This document shows, in pieces, positions 2,517 to 58,218 of a DNA stretch of 64,000 nt. The notes under the pieces were generated by a model. That model searched no databases and was not told the DNA's origin. It saw only the letters and a list, made by a program, of their open reading frames with translations. Positions within the stretch are counted from its first letter, which is position 1; every line of letters begins with the position of its first letter. Source of the stretch: an uncultured Candidatus Saccharibacteria bacterium (GTDB taxonomy: Bacteria; Patescibacteriota; Minisyncoccia; Phycocordibacterales; XYD1-FULL-46-19); contig CAZXCI010000003.1 in the NCBI GenBank assembly GCA_964639285.1, positions 31,187 through 95,186 of the forward strand, given 5' to 3'. The position numbers and the translations under genes were made by a program.

Positions 2517-3401
2517 ATGCCCGAATTACCCGAAGTAGAAACTTTAAAACGCGAATTGTCCCGCGTTGTTGTTGGTTTGAAAATAAAAAACTGCAAAGTC
2601 CTTTGGGCTAAAACGGTAAGCCCCCTCTCTCCTAAAAAATTCGCCAAACAAACTAAGAATAAGAAAATTGTCGGGGTAAGGCGAAGGGCTAAAATGCTTT
2701 TTCTCGATCTCGAAGGTAGTCAGGCTCTGGCGGTACATCTCAAAATGACGGGGCAACTTATTTTTCTCCCCCCAAGGACAGTCCTTAGGGGCAGTTCAAG
2801 GGCTGTCCTCGGGGGTCACCCAGATGACCAAATGCTCGAGAAACAGCCTTCTAAATATACTAGACTAATTTTTGAATTTACCGATAAGTCCAAGCTCTAC
2901 TTCAACGACCTGCGCAAATTTGGTTGGATAAAGCTTGTAACAGATAAAGAAATGAGTAAGCTGACAGAAAAGGTCGGCCCTGAACCACTCTCCCCCATCT
3001 TCACACCAAACCTTCTCATTGAGATATTTAAGAAATATAAAAATAGAACAATCAAGCAAATTCTCTTAGACCAAAGTCTAATTGCCGGTATTGGTAATAT
3101 CTATGCTGATGAAGCCTGCTTCTTGTCCAAGCTAAGGCCAGATAGAAAAACCCAAACGTTGAAACCAGCCCAAATAAAAAATCTGAGAGAAAATATTATA
3201 AAAGTTCTCAAACTCTCAATTCAGAAAAAAGGTACCTCGTCGCGCAATTATCGCCGGAGCGACGGCTCACGGGGCGGCTTCGTCCCCCACCTAAATGTCT
3301 ATGGTCGAGAAAGTGAACATTGCAAAGTTTGTCACCGGACCATCCAAAAAATCCGCCATATTGGACGAGGGACCCACTTCTGTCCCCATTGCCAGAAGTA
3401 A
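2517..3401 (+). CDS. mutM: Formamidopyrimidine-DNA glycosylase (Fpg/MutM)
   Basis: N-terminal MPELPEVET catalytic Pro2/Glu3 signature, H2TH region, C-terminal zinc finger CxxC...CPHCQ. Confidence 0.85.
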   Translation: MPELPEVETLKRELSRVVVGLKIKNCKVLWAKTVSPLSPKKFAKQTKNKKIVGVRRRAKMLFLDLEGSQALAVHLKMTGQLIFLPPRTVLRGSSRAVLGGHPDDQMLEKQPSKYTRLIFEFTDKSKLYFNDLRKFGWIKLVTDKEMSKLTEKVGPEPLSPIFTPNLLIEIFKKYKNRTIKQILLDQSLIAGIGNIYADEACFLSKLRPDRKTQTLKPAQIKNLRENIIKVLKLSIQKKGTSSRNYRRSDGSRGGFVPHLNVYGRESEHCKVCHRTIQKIRHIGRGTHFCPHCQK

Positions 3402-19450: not shown

Positions 19451-20554
19451 TTATTTATTAATAGGCATCACGAGATAAAGAAAGTTTTCATCCCCTACTC
19501 CAGATATTAAGAGAGGTTGGTTTTTATCAGTAAAACGAAGATAAACATCATCGGCGCCTATTGACGGCAAACAATCTAAAAGATATTTGGCATTAAAACT
19601 GCTTTCCAAATTATCTCCTTTTACTTTTGTAATTAAAGAAAAGTTATTTTCCCCAATATCTTGATTGCGAGAACTTATCTCTAAAGTGTTTGTTTTATTA
19701 TCAATTTTAAAGTCAATCTGATTGAATTTATCAGTAAAAATGTTTGATAATTTGAGGATACTAGACAACTCATCTTTTTTAACATTAAGTTCTGTTTTGA
19801 ATTTTGTTGGAATAATTTGTTGATAATCAGGATAAGAACCATCAATAATTCTAAGAGTTAAATATAGGTTGTCGGTTTGAATCGCCAGCTGATTCTTATT
19901 AAAACTAACAATAAGGTTTGCTTGGAGCCCATCAATTGTCTTTATTATCTCAGTGACACTCTTAAGAGGAATAATTAGAGCAATTTGTTCTTTAAATTTA
20001 TGGTCAACAACTATCTTTTTTTCGACTAGACGGAAAGAGTCGGTTGCAACAAAAAATAATTCATTTCCTTTATTGTAAACATAAACACTAGATATTTCAG
20101 GTTTAATATCCGATAAGGCAGCAGCAAAGATAACCGACTTTAACCCAGCGGTTAAGGTGGTTGAATCAATAGTAAAACCATTTTCTTGATTAATTTTAGG
20201 AATAATAGGAAAATCATCAGTATTTAAACCTTTTATTAAAGTATTAGTATTTTCTGTTGTTATTTTAAGATTATCGCTTATTGTCGTTAATTCAACTTTT
20301 ATCTCTTTATTTAAATTGGAGAGAAAATTATTTAAAACAGTGGCACTAACGGTAATTGATCCAACTTCTTGAATCTTGGCCGGAATTTCTATTTCTACCC
20401 CAACCTCTAAATTTGTTGATTTTATAATTAAAGCCTTATTGCTCGTCTCAAGGAGAATTGATCCTAAAATTGGTAAAGTTAAATTACGACCAGCAACTCG
20501 CTCAGCAATTGCTACTCCGTCCTTTAATTTATCTTTTACACATTCAATTTTCAT
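19451..20554 (-). CDS. dnaN: DNA polymerase III beta sliding clamp
   Basis: MKIECVKDKL...LTLPILGSILLE N-terminus, three-domain length (367 aa), dnaA-dnaN synteny. Confidence 0.9.
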   Translation of the reverse strand: MKIECVKDKLKDGVAIAERVAGRNLTLPILGSILLETSNKALIIKSTNLEVGVEIEIPAKIQEVGSITVSATVLNNFLSNLNKEIKVELTTISDNLKITTENTNTLIKGLNTDDFPIIPKINQENGFTIDSTTLTAGLKSVIFAAALSDIKPEISSVYVYNKGNELFFVATDSFRLVEKKIVVDHKFKEQIALIIPLKSVTEIIKTIDGLQANLIVSFNKNQLAIQTDNLYLTLRIIDGSYPDYQQIIPTKFKTELNVKKDELSSILKLSNIFTDKFNQIDFKIDNKTNTLEISSRNQDIGENNFSLITKVKGDNLESSFNAKYLLDCLPSIGADDVYLRFTDKNQPLLISGVGDENFLYLVMPINK

Positions 20555-20757: not shown

Positions 20758-22152
20758 CTAGCTATTAACATAAAGTAAAGACCTGATCTGTTCTACTTCT
20801 TGATTTAACAGAGAATCTGTTTTTATATCTTTTTTTATTTTCTCATAAGCGTGGATAACGGTTGTGTGATCTCTTCCTCCCAATTTTTGCCCAATATAAG
20901 GATAAGATGTATTAAAATCCTCTCTTAGTATATACATAATAACCTGTCTTGGTTTTACAATCTCTTTACGGCGGGTCTTTTCATAAAGAACTTTTTCTTC
21001 AATATTATAATAATTGGCAACAACACCGAGAACGTCCTTAATTGAGAGGGTTTTTTGTGGCTTGGTGTTGTTTTTTATTATCCCTTTAACCTCTTGAAGA
21101 GTGACATCTCTTTTTTTTGCTTGAGCTTGGCAAATAATAGAATTAAGGGCCCCTTCCAACTCTCGAATACTATCTTGGACAACAGAGGCAATGTATTCAA
21201 TAATTTCTGGAGCTAGAGAGAGATTGTTTACCTTAATTTTATTATTTAAAATAGCTAATCGAGACTCATAATCTGGTTTGGCAACATCAATAATTGTTCC
21301 TCCTTCAAAACGAGATCTTAAACGTTCTTCAAGACTTGGTATATACTTAGGCGGTTTGTCAGAAGAAAAAATAATTTGTTTATTATTTTCATAATAATGA
21401 TTAAAAAGATGAAAAAGCTCTTCCTGAGAATGTTCTTTATTGGAAAAAAATTGAACATCGTCAATGATTAGGAGGTCATATTTACGATAACGCTCTTTGA
21501 AAGCGTTACCTTTATTGTTTTGGATATTATTAATAAGTTCAACTATAAAATTCTCTGAGGTTATATAATAAACCGTCTTGTTTGGGTAGTTCTTCTTGAG
21601 CTGGTTGCCAATAGCCTGAAGAAGATGTGTTTTACCTAATCCTGTACCCCCATAAATAAAGAGTGGATTATGAATTGTTCCAGGATTTTTAACAATCGCC
21701 TGGCTAGCAGCATAGGCGACATCGTTAAAAGAGCCAACTGTGAAGGTTTCAAAAGTGTATTTAGGGTTAAGATTACTCTCTTTGTTGATATAGAGGTCTT
21801 TCAAGCCGAGATCGTTCACAATTAAGGCTGTTTTGTCCCCCTGAGAGCCCTTGTTCTTCTGTGAACTGTCTTTTTCATCATTTCGACTGATGATGTACTC
21901 TATTGAGCGTACCCCCTCCTCTATCTCGCGCAGGGCCTTAAGGATGAATTTGTGGTACTTAGTCATAAGCCAATCTCGAACAAAGGCGTTTGGGACTCCA
22001 ATATAGATGACACCCTCGTCATTCTTAACAATATGGGTGTTTTTAAACCAAGTACCAAAATTGGCTTTAGAGAGAGATAATTCTATCTCGTTGAGGGCGC
22101 TATCCCAGAGCTTCTTGTTATCTAAAATACTCTCCATAGCAATTGTCCCCAT
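20758..22152 (-). CDS. dnaA: Chromosomal replication initiator protein DnaA
   Basis: AAA+ Walker A GGTGLGKTHLL, sensor motifs, C-terminal DNA-binding helix YIGQKLGGRDHTTVIHA. Confidence 0.9.
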   Translation of the reverse strand: MGTIAMESILDNKKLWDSALNEIELSLSKANFGTWFKNTHIVKNDEGVIYIGVPNAFVRDWLMTKYHKFILKALREIEEGVRSIEYIISRNDEKDSSQKNKGSQGDKTALIVNDLGLKDLYINKESNLNPKYTFETFTVGSFNDVAYAASQAIVKNPGTIHNPLFIYGGTGLGKTHLLQAIGNQLKKNYPNKTVYYITSENFIVELINNIQNNKGNAFKERYRKYDLLIIDDVQFFSNKEHSQEELFHLFNHYYENNKQIIFSSDKPPKYIPSLEERLRSRFEGGTIIDVAKPDYESRLAILNNKIKVNNLSLAPEIIEYIASVVQDSIRELEGALNSIICQAQAKKRDVTLQEVKGIIKNNTKPQKTLSIKDVLGVVANYYNIEEKVLYEKTRRKEIVKPRQVIMYILREDFNTSYPYIGQKLGGRDHTTVIHAYEKIKKDIKTDSLLNQEVEQIRSLLYVNS

Positions 22153-54649: not shown

Positions 54650-55675
54650 ATGAATGACATTTTTAAATTAAAGAGGGAATTTTTGGAATATCTGGAGATT
54701 GAGAAGGGGCGGTCGTTGAAGACGGTAGAGAATTATGATCGTTACCTGACGAGATTTTTCAAACAAGCGGGCGTCAAGTCCCCTGCCGATATTACCGATG
54801 ACGCAGTAAGGCAGTATCGGTTGTGGTTGAATAGGCAAAGCGCTAACCCTACTTCGCCCGCTGACAACGGGCTACGAAGGGTTCAAAGTAGCTCTGCTAC
54901 TTTGAAGAAAAATACACAGAATTATCATCTGATTGCCTTGCGGGTGTTTCTCAAGTATCTGGCCCGGCGCTCTATCTCCTCTCTGCCACCGGAGAAAATA
55001 GAATTGGCCAAGACCGCCGGGCGAGATCTCGACCTGATCTCTGATGCCGAATTATCTCGGCTGATTGAGATGCCAGGCAAAGATCTCTCGGGCAAGTCTC
55101 AGGGCAAGAAGGCTGGCTCAGGTAAGAATGATGAGGTCAAGAGGTTGCGAGATAAAGCAATGCTTGAACTCTTCTTCTCCACGGGCTTACGTGTCTCGGA
55201 GTTGTGTTCGCTTGATCGCGATACCATCAACCTCGCTCGTGACGAGTTCTCTATCAGGGGTAAGGGTGAGAAAGTACGCTTGGTCTTTCTCTCCGACAAA
55301 GCGCGCGAAGCAATTAAGGATTATCTCGTCAAGCGCCAAGATATGGACGAGGCACTCTTCACCAATCTCTCGCTTATCAATTCTAATTCCTCGGGTTCTC
55401 TCAAGGTTAATAAGGGTGGTGGCAGTGATAGGCTGACACCAAGAAGTGTCGAGAGAATTATCAAGAAATATGCGATTAAAGCGGGCATCACCAAGAAGGT
55501 TACGCCCCATACTCTTCGTCACTCCTTCGCTACCGATCTTCTGCAAAATGGCGCGGATATTCGTTCGGTGCAAATGATGCTTGGGCACTCTAGTGTCTCA
55601 ACAACGCAAATTTATACTCACGTGACCGACAAACACTTAAGAGATATTCATAAAAAATTTCATAGTCGGTCATAA
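54650..55675 (+). CDS. xerC: Tyrosine site-specific recombinase, XerC/XerD family (with an inserted Ser/Gly-rich linker)
   Basis: N-terminal SAM-like core-binding domain; catalytic R...HxxR...Y block LRHSFATDLLQNGADIRSVQMMLGHSSVSTTQIYTHV. Confidence 0.85.
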   Translation: MNDIFKLKREFLEYLEIEKGRSLKTVENYDRYLTRFFKQAGVKSPADITDDAVRQYRLWLNRQSANPTSPADNGLRRVQSSSATLKKNTQNYHLIALRVFLKYLARRSISSLPPEKIELAKTAGRDLDLISDAELSRLIEMPGKDLSGKSQGKKAGSGKNDEVKRLRDKAMLELFFSTGLRVSELCSLDRDTINLARDEFSIRGKGEKVRLVFLSDKAREAIKDYLVKRQDMDEALFTNLSLINSNSSGSLKVNKGGGSDRLTPRSVERIIKKYAIKAGITKKVTPHTLRHSFATDLLQNGADIRSVQMMLGHSSVSTTQIYTHVTDKHLRDIHKKFHSRS

Positions 55676-55687
55676 TTTTTTTGTCTT

Positions 55688-55724
55688 GTGGATAACTCTC
55701 ATTTTTGAGTTATCCACTTTTTAT
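55688..55724 (+). terminator. xer terminator: hairpin GTGGATAACT-loop-AGTTATCCAC followed by TTTTTAT; each arm is itself a DnaA-box consensus TGTGGATAA / TTATCCACA
   Basis: 10-bp perfect stem; DnaA-box identity seen directly. Confidence 0.5.
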
Positions 55725-55738
55725 AAGGGACAAGGGCT

Positions 55739-55766
55739 TTGACTCACTTGTCCTATAAGTTATAAT
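55739..55766 (+). promoter_or_regulatory. Sigma70-like promoter TTGACT - 16 nt - TATAAT driving the downstream non-coding transcript
   Basis: Consensus hexamers; no CDS follows before the 56049-56089 terminator. Confidence 0.45.
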
Positions 55767-55772
55767 TCTATT

Positions 55773-56089
55773 GGACGTGATTTGGTCTTCGCACTTACCT
55801 CCAACCGATAGGACTGTCCTCTTAAGGACAATGTCTTGAAGTAATTAAGGTTTGGCGGTAGCTTGAGATAAGCAGTACGTTTCTCGTGTGGTACCCTAAG
55901 GTGTTTGGTGTATAGTAGCAGTTTGAGACCACAGAAGCGGTGTTATCTTAAGAGGTTGGGCAGAATTCGTTGATCTGCCAAGGGTTCGCCAGAACCTCAG
56001 GGAATCTGGAACAATTGCGGCTTGTTATCATTGCCGCTACTCTATATCGGGCCAGCTGACTCATCATTGGGCGGGTGGCCCATTTTTTA
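55773..56089 (+). ncRNA. Candidate roughly 315-nt non-coding RNA of unassigned family, delimited by a consensus promoter and an intrinsic terminator (GGGCCA...TGGCCC followed by ATTTTTT)
   Basis: No credible ORF on the plus strand; multiple internal hairpins; short tmRNA- and RNase P-like sequence resemblances were examined and not considered sufficient. Confidence 0.3.
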
Positions 56090-56108
56090 TCCAGAATTTT
56101 TCGAGGGA

Positions 56109-57593
56109 TTATTTTACTCGATATTTATCCCTGATTTTTTTGAGCTCTTCTTTTTCTACTTCTTCTTTTTTATTTTTTCCTTTTTCGGCCAGTTCAATCA
56201 ACTCTTTTTCTGACAATTTTGATAATTCTCCTGCTCGTTTCACGAGAAACTCTTCACTGTTTATATCAGGGTTCTCTAGAGCTTCTTCTAATAAAGCGTT
56301 TAAAATATGGCCTATTTTTGGTCCGGGTGTTTCGCGTGTAACAGCCATGACTTGTTTCCCGTCTATTTTCAACATACCAACTGAGGTTGGAGAACGGAGA
56401 GCTTCTTCAATCATGGACTCGTATTTTCTTAATCTGTAAGGCTCTTCCTTGGGTCGGCCCATCCCGATGCGGTCACAAATGCGTAAATTCATTAGGTCCC
56501 AGATATATTCTGGCCCCACATTGGCGATAACTCGCCTGACGGCTGATAAGGTAATTTTCTCTGGATCAGCAAAAAACATGTGATTTCGAACCATTTTTTG
56601 CACTAGCTCTATCTCTTTGTTAGAGAATTTTAAGCGCGACATTATCTCTACGGCCATTCTCTCCCCGACTACCTCGTGTCCGTAGAAGGTATATTCTTTG
56701 GACTTTTGCCCTGTTCGGCGAGATTTGGGCTTCCCTAGGTCATGAAATAGGGCCGCTAGTTTCACGTGTAAAGGGTAATTTTTGTCAGCCGCATGTTGCA
56801 CGGAGCGAAGAAGGTGTTCCCAAACGTCATAAATATGTTCTCCCTTCTGCTCTATCCCTATCCCCCTCTCTAATTCTGGTAAAATATACTGCAAAATGCC
56901 GATTTTGTGGCTAAGAATAAGACCATCCATCGGCTCTGGGGAGTCTATTATCTTAACCAATTCCTCCCTAATTCTCTCGGTGGAGATCTCCCTAAGTAGG
57001 CTAGAATTGCGAGAAATGCTGTCTAAAGCTTCCTTGTTGCACGTGAAACCAAGCTCGCAAGCGAATCTAACGGCCCTTAGCATGCGTAAAGCGTCCTCAG
57101 CGAAGCGTATATCAGCCTCCCCTACTGTTTTGACAATCTTGTCCTTTATGTCCTTTACCCCACCATATAGGTCGATTAATTCGCCCTCAGCGGGGTTATA
57201 GGCCAGTGCATTGATGGTAAAGTCGCGACGAGACAAATCATCTTCGAGCTTATCGCTAAATTTAATATTGTCAGGATGTCGTCGATCAGAATAATTGGCT
57301 TCGGTGCGGAAGGGTGTGACTTCGACATTTTTTAATTTTTCGTCCCCTGCTTCTTCGTTGATCACTGTGACTGTGCCAAACTTATTCTCATAAACAGTTT
57401 TGGGGAAAAGAGCCACAATCTCTTCGGGCGTGGCGTTGGTGGTAATATCCCAGTCCCTGGGCTCACGTCCAATCAAGCTATCCCGGACGCATCCGCCGAC
57501 AAGATAAGCCAAAAAGCCACTATTTTGTAAGGTTTTAGTGATTTCCATGATTTCACGTGGAACGTTTAAGTTTATCTTGACAGTATTGATCAT
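56109..57593 (-). CDS. cca: CCA-adding tRNA nucleotidyltransferase (poly(A) polymerase head domain plus HD domain)
   Basis: GGCVRDSLIGREPRDWDITT nucleotidyltransferase motif, HD domain (HDLGK), 494 aa. Confidence 0.85.
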   Translation of the reverse strand: MINTVKINLNVPREIMEITKTLQNSGFLAYLVGGCVRDSLIGREPRDWDITTNATPEEIVALFPKTVYENKFGTVTVINEEAGDEKLKNVEVTPFRTEANYSDRRHPDNIKFSDKLEDDLSRRDFTINALAYNPAEGELIDLYGGVKDIKDKIVKTVGEADIRFAEDALRMLRAVRFACELGFTCNKEALDSISRNSSLLREISTERIREELVKIIDSPEPMDGLILSHKIGILQYILPELERGIGIEQKGEHIYDVWEHLLRSVQHAADKNYPLHVKLAALFHDLGKPKSRRTGQKSKEYTFYGHEVVGERMAVEIMSRLKFSNKEIELVQKMVRNHMFFADPEKITLSAVRRVIANVGPEYIWDLMNLRICDRIGMGRPKEEPYRLRKYESMIEEALRSPTSVGMLKIDGKQVMAVTRETPGPKIGHILNALLEEALENPDINSEEFLVKRAGELSKLSEKELIELAEKGKNKKEEVEKEELKKIRDKYRVK

Positions 57594-57681: not shown

Positions 57682-57754
57682 CGCCCCTGTGGTGAAATGG
57701 ATATCACAACAGTCTTCGGAACTGTCGTTGGGGGTTCGAGTCCTCCCGGGGGCA
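57682..57754 (+). tRNA. tRNA-Arg (anticodon TCG), no encoded CCA
   Basis: Acceptor GCCCCTG/CGGGGGC, D-arm GTGA-AATGGATA-TCAC, anticodon arm ACAGT-CTTCGGA-ACTGT, T-arm GGGGG-TTCGAGT-CCTCC. Confidence 0.75.
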
Positions 57755-57804
57755 CAGGCTCAAAAGAACAAAAGTGTTTAGATGAAGATATCACAACAAA
57801 GAAA

Positions 57805-57888
57805 GCCGAAGTGGTGGAATTGGCAGACACGCACGCTTCAGAGGCGTGTAAGCGCAAGCTTGTGAGGGTTCAAATCCCTCCTTCGGCA
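57805..57888 (+). tRNA. tRNA-Leu (anticodon CAG), class II with a long variable arm
   Basis: Acceptor GCCGAAG/CTTCGGC, anticodon arm CACGC-TTCAGAG-GCGTG, variable arm TAAGCGCAAGCTTGTG, T-arm AGGGTTCAAATCCCT. Confidence 0.75.
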
Positions 57889-57936
57889 CATGGTAGTTTG
57901 AAAATAGAATAATTTTTGTTAGAATAGAAAAGTTCT

Positions 57937-58007
57937 GCGGGTATGGTTTAGTGGTAGAACACGTCCTTGCCAAGGATGAGACGGGAGTCCGATTCTCCCT
58001 ACCCGCA
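57937..58007 (+). tRNA. tRNA-Gly (anticodon GCC)
   Basis: Acceptor GCGGGTA/TACCCGC, D-arm GTTT-AGTGGTA-GAAC, anticodon arm CGTCC-TTGCCAA-GGATG, T-arm GGGAG-TCCGATT-CTCCC. Confidence 0.8.
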
Positions 58008-58218
58008 CACACTAGCTTGTCTAAAATACTCTAAAACTGTGGATAACCCTGTGGTTAAGGGGGATAAAAGACGTCTTTTCTTTCTAAAGACTTTCTTATA
58101 GAAACTAAAGGAAAATGGCTAAAAATAAGGGTTTTTTATATAAAACAGTCTATAAAAATGTCGTTTTAGAAGCTTTGACCTATAGTGTTTCATACGAAAC
58201 GTTTTAATATAGTTACAC

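Follow-up and report, generated by a model that had tools for sequence, protein, structure and literature searches.

The 64,000-nucleotide (nt) stretch of contig CAZXCI010000003.1 analysed here, which we call the window, contains an intergenic region between an xer-like recombinase gene and a convergent cca gene. For this region a first-pass annotation, made from the letters alone, had proposed a noncoding RNA of roughly 315 nt. Pfam domains agree with this placement for both flanking genes, and a transcription unit can be delimited between them:

54650-55675: xer-like recombinase gene, a tyrosine recombinase of the Xer/integrase type (Pfam Phage_integrase)
55688-55717, plus strand: terminator hairpin of the xer-like gene, followed by TTTTT (terminator scan)
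55739-55766, plus strand: sigma-70-type promoter TTGACT-16-TATAAT, with the -35 hexamer TTGACT at 55739-55744 and the -10 hexamer TATAAT at 55761-55766 (promoter scan)
55773-56088, plus strand: RNA gene, about 315 nt
56049-56088, plus strand: intrinsic terminator, with stem GGGCCA (56049-56054)...UGGCCC (56076-56081) and a U6 tract at 56083-56088 (folding)
56109-57593, minus strand, convergent: cca gene, a CCA-adding enzyme with an HD domain (Pfam PolyA_pol and HD)

In our judgement it is moderately probable that 55773-56088 is a genuine, independently transcribed and structured small RNA gene, belonging to a new, clade-restricted family of the Paceibacterota. Judged by its sequence signals, it is a separate transcription unit. 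The near-consensus promoter of the first-pass annotation was found again by the promoter scan, which matched 11 of 12 consensus positions and ranked it as the top-scoring site between 55000 and 57000; the transcription start inferred from it is G55773. At the other end, the canonical intrinsic terminator described earlier was recovered by both scanning and folding, the terminator scan marking an inner hairpin at 56068-56082 followed by TTTTTT, and 20 nt separate the end of the terminator from the cca stop codon. Because the xer-like gene has a terminator of its own, the RNA unit stands alone. It also proved to be as poor in plausible open reading frames (ORFs) as had been stated: those on both strands are merely 22-39 amino acids (aa) long, mostly begin with TTG or GTG and in no case have a convincing ribosome-binding site, and the longest, of 63 aa, begins with TTG and extends through the terminator. 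Indels between the RNAs of relatives are not multiples of three in size. The unit thus has the usual attributes of a small RNA gene, namely its own promoter and intrinsic terminator, an intergenic position and the lack of a conserved ORF. Gene callers leave this region empty or place inconsistent, probably spurious, small ORFs on either strand; in one relative (L082), for example, a 61-aa ORF was placed on the opposite strand.

The earlier description of the region as hairpin-rich holds for the 3′ 101 nt, which fold better than every one of 200 shuffled sequences (z -4.8), but less so for the whole RNA, where the signal is modest (z -2.1 on the plus strand and -1.4 on the minus strand), and not for the 5′ 78 nt (z -0.4). 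Upstream, the stretch 55680-55772, which covers the xer terminator and the promoter, folds with z -5.3.

Searches with the single RNA sequence (nhmmer and blastn) against 80 genome loci with 55-68% CCA identity returned nothing, and homologues were therefore reached through synteny. A total of 173 related loci (designated by L numbers) was collected, 80 from reference genomes, 80 from metagenomes and 13 from contigs encoding close CCA homologues; among them, L081, L082/L169 and L084 come from the JGI samples 3300037067, 3300037810 and 3300014208, respectively. The CCA enzyme homologues are labelled Candidatus Paceibacterota, Candidatus Vogelbacteria or Patescibacteria, the bacteria of the candidate phyla radiation (CPR). 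In all close relatives with readable DNA (CCA about 69-87% identical) xer is followed by an intergenic region of 300-520 nt and then by a convergent cca, and in one further relative, for which gene order alone is known, the same order is kept with a wider gap. Indeed, relatives largely share the gene order UPF0102 - tRNAs - cca - RNA - xer - rpsO. The aligned intergenic regions of close relatives show conserved blocks amid divergent sequence, and a -10-like hexamer is consistently found 6-7 nt before a 5′ (G/A)GAC(G/A)U, a fixed distance that supports a conserved promoter and start.

Two covariance models describe the RNA, R1 for its 3′ module and R2 for its 5′ module. Each has a single match in the window, R1 at 55989-56090 (84.6 bits) and R2 at 55773-55851 (68.9 bits), and both match 14 other distinct loci, which provides conservation across related genomes, one of the two things whose absence would have told against the earlier proposal. 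R1 also picks up L092, L100, L087 and L089, which lie outside its building set. Neither model has a credible match in 80 more distant genome loci (L001-L080), so the strict family is narrow; only the promoter cassette and a UUUGKUC/UUGUUCUUU motif, both described below, reach further. We regard this as a new RNA family, restricted to one Paceibacterota clade (CPR, near Vogelbacteria). Within the window the RNA is built as follows, all on the plus strand:

55773-55850: 5′ module (R2 and alignment)
55777-55792: P1 hairpin, with loop UUUGGUCU at 55781-55788
55793-55811: C-rich, G-poor linker, holding ACCUCC at 55797-55802
55812-55835: P2 hairpin, with loop UCUUAA at 55820-55825 (UYUUAA in the family)
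55839-55850: AAGUAAUUAAGG block after P2
55851-55988: variable centre, without an ORF in the window
55959-55964 and 55974-55979: hairpin GGCAGA/UCUGCC closing the variable centre
55989-56090: 3′ module (R1; fold z -4.8)
55989-56009: P4, CCAGA/UCUGG
56010-56016: AACAAUU
56017-56037: P5, GCGGC/GCCGC, with an A/U-rich loop
56038-56048: UACUCUAUAUC
56049-56081 and 56083-56088: terminator stem and U-tract of the 3′ module

Conservation within the family peaks in the P1 loop, with the sequence GAUUUGKUC and its invariant core UUUGKUC; the loop variants are UUUGGUC, UUUGUUC, UUUGAUC, UUUGAAC and UUUGUAC. P2 combines a conserved inner stem, GUCC/GGAC, with a variable outer stem, and is followed by AAGUAAUAA. 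In relatives the variable centre ranges from 25 to 170 nt, and the hairpin at its end covaries with that of L169 (GACAG/CUGUC). This modular build was missing from the first-pass annotation, as were the small ORF of some relatives and the DnaA boxes and inverted repeat at the promoter. A further hairpin, GGUUC-GCCA-GAACC (55983-55996), is mutually exclusive with P4 and may represent an alternative fold; it is favoured by the three closest sequences, and P4 by the covariation of 14 sequences. Three other pairings were considered and rejected. A tertiary contact between AAGUAAUAA and the A/U-rich P5 loop is plausible for L081, L082 and L084 yet cannot form in L170 and L086, as expected of chance between A/U-rich sequences; pairing of the 5′ UUGKUC with the 3′ GAACAA shows no covariation; and the match of ACAAUUGC in the 3′ module to the dnaA leader is only a 6-nt palindrome that is not conserved in relatives.

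Covariation with orthologous intergenic regions, the analysis suggested by the first-pass annotation, revealed compensatory pairs in P2, P4, P5 and the terminator. RNAalifold, run on a plain MAFFT alignment of 14 3′ modules, recovered P4 and the terminator, with 10 of 14 pairs compensatory. When P4, P5 and the terminator are scored on the MAFFT alignment, pairing holds in 91.2% of cells, and both sides have changed in 13 of 19 pairs, as compared to 5.2 ± 1.6 double-changed pairs in shuffles (none of 500 reached 13) and 29-52% pairing in slid-partner controls. The corresponding values on a model-fitted alignment are 94.8% and 17 of 19; this alignment holds 21 distinct hits, three of them weak (E ≥ 0.018, probably chance), and is biased to its own structure, which is why the MAFFT-based counts are also given. 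P2 is 90-96% paired, all three of its outer pairs are compensatory and G-U pairs are present. Structure is thus supported for P2, P4, P5 and the terminator, and weakly for P1.

Selection on the ends of the RNA is apparent from the rate of neutral change around them. In cca, identity at four-fold synonymous sites between the window and its two nearest relatives has dropped to 0.40-0.42, essentially saturation, yet the 5′ and 3′ modules of the window are 0.77-0.83 identical to those of L081 and L169; the ends of the RNA are therefore under purifying selection. Similarly, promoter, start and terminator have not shifted relative to one another in relatives with saturated neutral sites. The variable centre is 0.70 identical to that of the nearest relative, against 0.62 ± 0.04 for shuffles, and the middle of the RNA is largely free to vary.

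None of this corresponds to a known RNA family. Rfam 15 at gathering score found nine tRNAs and nothing else in the whole window, and ARAGORN found 9 tRNAs and no tmRNA. The Rfam check proposed by the first-pass annotation for transfer-messenger RNA (tmRNA), RNase P RNA, 6S RNA and signal recognition particle (SRP) RNA was also run with permissive filters on 55600-56200 (601 nt), and even at E ≤ 10 there was no match to any of these, to a T-box or to a riboswitch; the best permissive matches were to snoRNA and miRNA models at E 0.3-6, as expected by chance. Rfam on 18 + 7 related loci gave only tRNAs and chance matches. The defining structures are missing as well. A tmRNA joins its 5′ and 3′ ends in a tRNA-like domain and contains an internal tag-peptide reading frame; here the RNA ends in a plain terminator without a tRNA-like domain, and RF00023, its permuted forms and ARAGORN are all negative. 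RNase P RNA has a conserved core of at least about 330 nt and a P4 helix formed by conserved regions CR-I and CR-V; besides the absence of RF00010 and RF00011 matches at E ≤ 10, 55773-56089 contains no CR-I (GAGGAAAGUCC-like) sequence and no P4 partner. 6S RNA is a long irregular rod, closed by pairing of its ends and opened by a large central bubble; in the present RNA local hairpins follow one another, no long-range 5′-3′ closing stem is supported and there is no central bubble, and RF00013 and its relatives are negative. For SRP RNA, whose helix 8 has conserved symmetric and asymmetric loops and a GNRA tetraloop, neither RF00169 nor RF01854 matched at E ≤ 10, and the helix 8 motif with its tetraloop was not seen in the sequence. 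A riboswitch, T-box or ribosomal-protein leader was rejected as well, since the RNA is terminator-ended, its neighbour cca is convergent, no same-strand gene lies downstream and Rfam is negative; in L082 and L094 the 5′ module precedes a small ORF and might conceivably serve as a leader there. Finally, an origin from mobile elements was rejected, as blastn against phage and plasmid collections gave no match to the RNA.

The first-pass annotation had pointed to weak likenesses of the RNA to the tmRNA 5′ end and to CR-V of RNase P RNA. With no match to either family at E ≤ 10 and a negative ARAGORN search, we attribute both short resemblances to chance; moreover, in looser relatives that share the promoter and the 5′ motif, the RNA has a hypervariable body and measures just 95-230 nt, less than a tmRNA or RNase P RNA requires. 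Its other remarks on this point fared better. We likewise found neither a P4 partner nor a tRNA-like 3′ end in what folds as a string of local hairpins, and the suspicion of a family that is possibly novel agrees with the lack of Rfam matches, the syntenic conservation and the covariation.

In a few relatives the variable centre is not empty. In L082 and L094 it is exactly filled by an ORF of 55-56 aa with a strong GGAGG site and the pattern MxVQCCxCxK...VSHGYCxxC, the two proteins being 52% identical to each other. In L171 the ORF has the same start and ends after 14 codons, and L090 has a different Cys-rich ORF that extends into the 3′ module. The three related frames are located as follows:

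L082 5608-5772, minus strand: small Cys-rich ORF
L094 4078-4245, minus strand: small Cys-rich ORF
L171 about 3165-3215, minus strand: ORF remnant of 14 codons, then a stop

The ORF is absent from the window and from nine distinct close loci that have both modules (L081, L169, L084, L170, L086, L095, L087, L088 and L172), and tblastn of the three small ORFs against the collected loci found no remnant at the window locus. No Pfam family covers the small Cys-rich protein, and a database of 5.8 billion proteins contains just 2 entries of it. With respect to a dual-function RNA, then, L082 and L094 have a small ORF behind a strong ribosome-binding site, L171 has it truncated, and the window and most relatives lack it. 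In those few relatives a small Cys-rich protein would be translated from the same scaffold. Selection on the scaffold persists where the ORF is missing, and for this reason we prefer a regulatory RNA that in some lineages also serves as an mRNA over an ancestral small-protein gene that repeatedly lost its ORF.

The promoter region carries conserved elements of its own, which are listed here together with the replication genes of the window:

55688-55695 and 55710-55717: GTGGATAA and TTATCCAC, two inverted perfect DnaA-box octamers that form the xer terminator
55727-55754: inverted repeat GGGACAAG/CUUGUCCU bracketing the -35 hexamer, a candidate operator
20758-22152, minus strand: dnaA (Pfam)
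19451-20554, minus strand: dnaN (Pfam)
7721, 11419, 16610, 20851, 22163, 37023, 55688, 55710 and 58039: TTATCCAC sites, mostly intergenic or at gene ends

The promoter-proximal DnaA box ends 21 nt upstream of the -35 hexamer. This box is found in the same orientation ahead of the RNA in almost all close relatives; among dereplicated loci it is present in 44 of 139, as compared to 1 in control regions. The octamer TTATCCAC occurs 9 times in the window where 1.7 are expected, with sites in the dnaA-dnaN region at about 20.8-22.2 kb. As dnaA and dnaN are confirmed by Pfam, oriC is placed near 22.2 kb; dnaA is 34 kb from the RNA locus. DnaA acts as a transcription factor (PMC2533591, PMC11317965), and the distribution of its boxes hints that it may be a broad regulator in this small genome. 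The inverted repeat is the window version of a TAAAGGACA/TGTCCTTTA motif that is widespread in Paceibacterota. We rejected a dif site as an explanation of the inverted repeats, since their arms are 4 nt or 12-33 nt apart, as compared to the 6-8 nt of an Xer centre, and the locus is near oriC, not near the terminus.

These elements extend beyond the strict family. In distant Paceibacterota the region downstream of cca has TTATCCACA, TGTCCTTTA(C/T)A at the -35 position and TAAAGGACA at or near the start, followed by an unannotated, terminator-ended RNA of 95-500 nt that has no Rfam match. Many of these cassette-driven RNAs begin with GGACAG-N4-GAUUUGRUC or contain UUGUUCUUU, and this motif is enriched on the RNA strand 200-400 nt beyond cca (31 versus about 5 per bin). 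The cassette and the shared 5′ motif point to a looser superfamily, or at least to a conserved cassette driving fast-evolving RNAs, beyond the strict family. In the window outside the locus TGTCCTYTWA is not enriched (15 versus 22.6 expected).

A second, very conserved cassette, TGTCCTTTATAAACATTACYAACATAGTTATCCACA...TAAAGGACA, adjoins tRNA genes in many Paceibacterota and is found about 400 nt upstream of cca in L128, L130, L133, L137, L142, L159 and others. The window has a degenerate copy at 58015-58095, after tRNA-Gly, which reads TTGTCTAAAA...GTGGATAA...ATAAAAGACG. Direct repeats TGTCC-N7-8-TGTCY at the -35 position are reminiscent of Pho-box geometry. In L016 and L020/L039, just past the cca stop, an inverted cassette precedes an unannotated RNA of about 430 nt directed away from cca (AAGGACAUAAAAUAUCAUCAGACUAGUUUGUCAUCCGAGGUGACCGCAG...), which has no Rfam match.

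What the RNA does is suggested by its anatomy. Surfaces for pairing are typically marked by features such as the invariant 7-nt sequence in a hairpin loop and the G-poor, C-rich linker seen here, and UUUG fits the YUNR loop motif of antisense RNAs. The RNA is probably a regulator. It would act in trans, pairing with other RNAs or holding a protein through the invariant loop, the C-rich linker or both, and its stable 3′ hairpins would protect it. Its transcription would be set by proteins at the conserved DnaA box or boxes and at the inverted repeat over the -35 hexamer, and is probably modulated by DnaA and a binder of that repeat; control through the DnaA box would tie the level of the RNA to DnaA status. 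A bolder form of this proposal, which we regard as doubtful, makes the RNA a DnaA-controlled riboregulator acting through the UUUGKUC loop and takes the TTATCCACA plus TGTCCTTTA/TAAAGGACA cassette as the mark of an unrecognised regulon. In an organism with few transcription factors, DnaA at the conserved box would couple the RNA level to replication-initiation status, in some lineages together with that of a small zinc-ribbon-like peptide, and the RNA would adjust the expression of other genes via its loop; the cassette, at this locus and beside tRNA genes, would define a regulon of stable and regulatory RNAs.

Several observations weigh against a structured trans-acting RNA, whose function and mechanism are read from anatomy alone. 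Sequences complementary to the invariant loop are about as frequent in the window as expected (53 versus 48), and the flanking genes of 21 relatives have no consistent loop-complement site; with no target found, the trans-regulatory mechanism is of modest confidence. In the window, the predicted fold leaves little of the C-rich linker unpaired (unpaired probability 0.15), and a CUCCAC resembling an anti-Shine-Dalgarno sequence is only weakly enriched, in 5 of 23 related sequences versus 0.9 expected; for these two reasons an anti-Shine-Dalgarno seed was rejected. The 5′ 78 nt fold no better than shuffles, as given above, and P1 is only 69-82% paired with few double changes and weak covariation. 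As DNA, P2 is a near-palindrome of a TGTCC/GGACA motif common at Paceibacterota promoters, so that part of its conservation could be at the level of DNA. Finally, some relatives (L082, L094) do have an ORF in the centre.

The P2 palindrome leads to an explanation in which conservation is mainly that of DNA, a cluster of protein sites (DnaA boxes, TGTCC/GGACA repeats, parS-like sites) near the origin with an incidental transcript. The enrichment of TTATCCAC in the window and its conservation at the locus fit such a cluster, as do the TGTCCTTTA/TAAAGGACA pairs with a DnaA box in most Paceibacterota loci and beside tRNA genes, four parS-like sites within 2.2 kb and the distance of 34 kb to dnaA. 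However, apart from an overlap with P2, the DNA motifs are confined to the stretch upstream of the start, and P4, P5, the outer stem of P2 and the terminator keep pairing despite sequence change, with G-U pairs that make sense only in RNA. The covarying outer stem and G-U pairs of P2 argue that an RNA hairpin is also selected there. In addition, every close relative has a near-consensus promoter and an intrinsic terminator around the conserved blocks, and TGTCCTYTWA is not enriched elsewhere in the window, all of which makes a purely DNA-level explanation very unlikely. A highly divergent tmRNA, RNase P, 6S or SRP RNA missed by Rfam in CPR bacteria would suit the size of about 315 nt and the short similarities to the tmRNA 5′ end and CR-V. 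Against it stand the searches at E ≤ 10, also negative in the 18 + 7 related loci, the negative ARAGORN result, a fold of local hairpins with no tRNA-like end, P4 partner or bubbled rod, and looser relatives of only 95-230 nt with hypervariable bodies; it is extremely improbable and can be considered essentially excluded.

Two further alternatives are unlikely, to a similar degree, and each accounts for part of the data. The transcript could be a relic of a small-protein gene, an ancestral mRNA for a Cys-rich protein of about 55 aa whose ORF decayed here, leaving an RNA that is non-functional or tolerated. The CxxC...HGYCxxC ORFs of L082 and L094, with their strong GGAGG sites, 52% identity and exact fit to the variable centre, would be expected in this case, and so would the L171 frame that starts alike and stops after 14 codons, the AAGG/AAGGGG resembling a Shine-Dalgarno sequence after the AAGUAAUAA block in ORF-less relatives, and the barely conserved centre in the window (0.70 versus 0.62). 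Yet the modules are about 0.8 identical and show compensatory changes in ORF-less lineages where synonymous sites are saturated, so they are selected without the ORF, which is missing from most of the 15 distinct loci and has left no trace at the window locus by tblastn; the protein itself is very rare and without a Pfam family, and more distant relatives have shorter, ORF-less RNAs with the same 5′ motif. Alternatively, the RNA could act in cis on cca, limiting or processing its transcripts by antisense or convergent transcription. Indeed, the RNA terminator and the cca stop codon are just 20 nt apart, the adjacency is preserved in many relatives, and on the minus strand the terminator hairpin is followed by GAUAUAGAG with no U-tract and is hence one-directional; cca has no terminator of its own, and its transcripts would consequently read into the RNA gene. 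However, simple transcriptional interference needs neither covarying hairpins nor an invariant loop, and L097/L098, and to a lesser degree L100 and L173, have up to about 285 nt extra between the RNA terminator and cca, which holds parS-like sites and additional terminators.

Our preferred reading, a structured small RNA that probably regulates in trans, places it near several known systems. SgrS/SgrT, RNAIII/hld and SR1/SR1P are dual-function bacterial small RNAs, and like them the present RNA is a stand-alone, promoter-to-terminator transcript of a few hundred nt with conserved, structured ends and a small ORF in some lineages that is missing from others; unlike them, its ORF is rare and absent from the window, and Rfam reveals no homology in sequence or structure. 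The C-rich-seed regulatory RNAs of Firmicutes, of the RsaE/RoxS type, similarly have an intrinsic terminator, no ORF and a G-poor, C/U-rich stretch between hairpins (here ACCUCC in the window and UCUCCAC in relatives) that could pair with Shine-Dalgarno sequences. In the present case, however, this motif is weakly enriched and mostly paired in the window, the best-conserved element is the UUUGKUC loop, and there is no homology. As in sda, a DnaA-controlled small gene of Bacillus subtilis, and at other DnaA-box promoters, a small gene here has a conserved, perfect DnaA box shortly ahead of its promoter, but its product is RNA rather than protein, the window box is also part of the upstream gene's terminator stem and DnaA control is predicted. 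With tmRNA, RNase P, 6S and SRP RNA the similarity is limited to a comparable length, a noncoding transcript and its own promoter and terminator; their defining structures are all missing and every search was negative.

CPR bacteria have tiny genomes and few regulators and have not yet been grown alone, and their regulatory RNAs are almost unexplored; full-text searches, most of them aimed at RNAs of CPR/Patescibacteria, returned nothing relevant on small RNAs of these bacteria or on this motif. The family is absent from Rfam, phage and plasmid collections and the searchable literature; it is a new one of a familiar kind, a bacterial small RNA. A structured RNA that is under purifying selection, keeps a fixed position and has a DnaA-box promoter gives a specific candidate regulator that can be put to the test, and the two covariance models offer annotators a means to label a region that is now empty or misfilled. 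If the link to DnaA is true, it would link regulation by RNA to the control of replication in a lineage where we understand neither; if it is false, this is one more clade-specific small RNA.

Beyond cca, a cluster of tRNA-Arg(TCG), tRNA-Leu(CAG) and tRNA-Gly(GCC) occupies 57683-58008 of the window, divergent from cca. Four parS-like palindromes (GTTTCAYRYGAAAC, at most one mismatch) lie at 56237-56250, 56329-56342, 57036-57049 and 58187-58200, three of them inside cca and one beyond the tRNA cluster, amounting to 7 strand-matches versus 0.14 expected. This density suggests a putative ParB-loading cluster around cca, and exact copies of GTTTCACGTGAAAC are present in the cca-RNA spacers of the relatives L014, L097, L100, L110 and L173.

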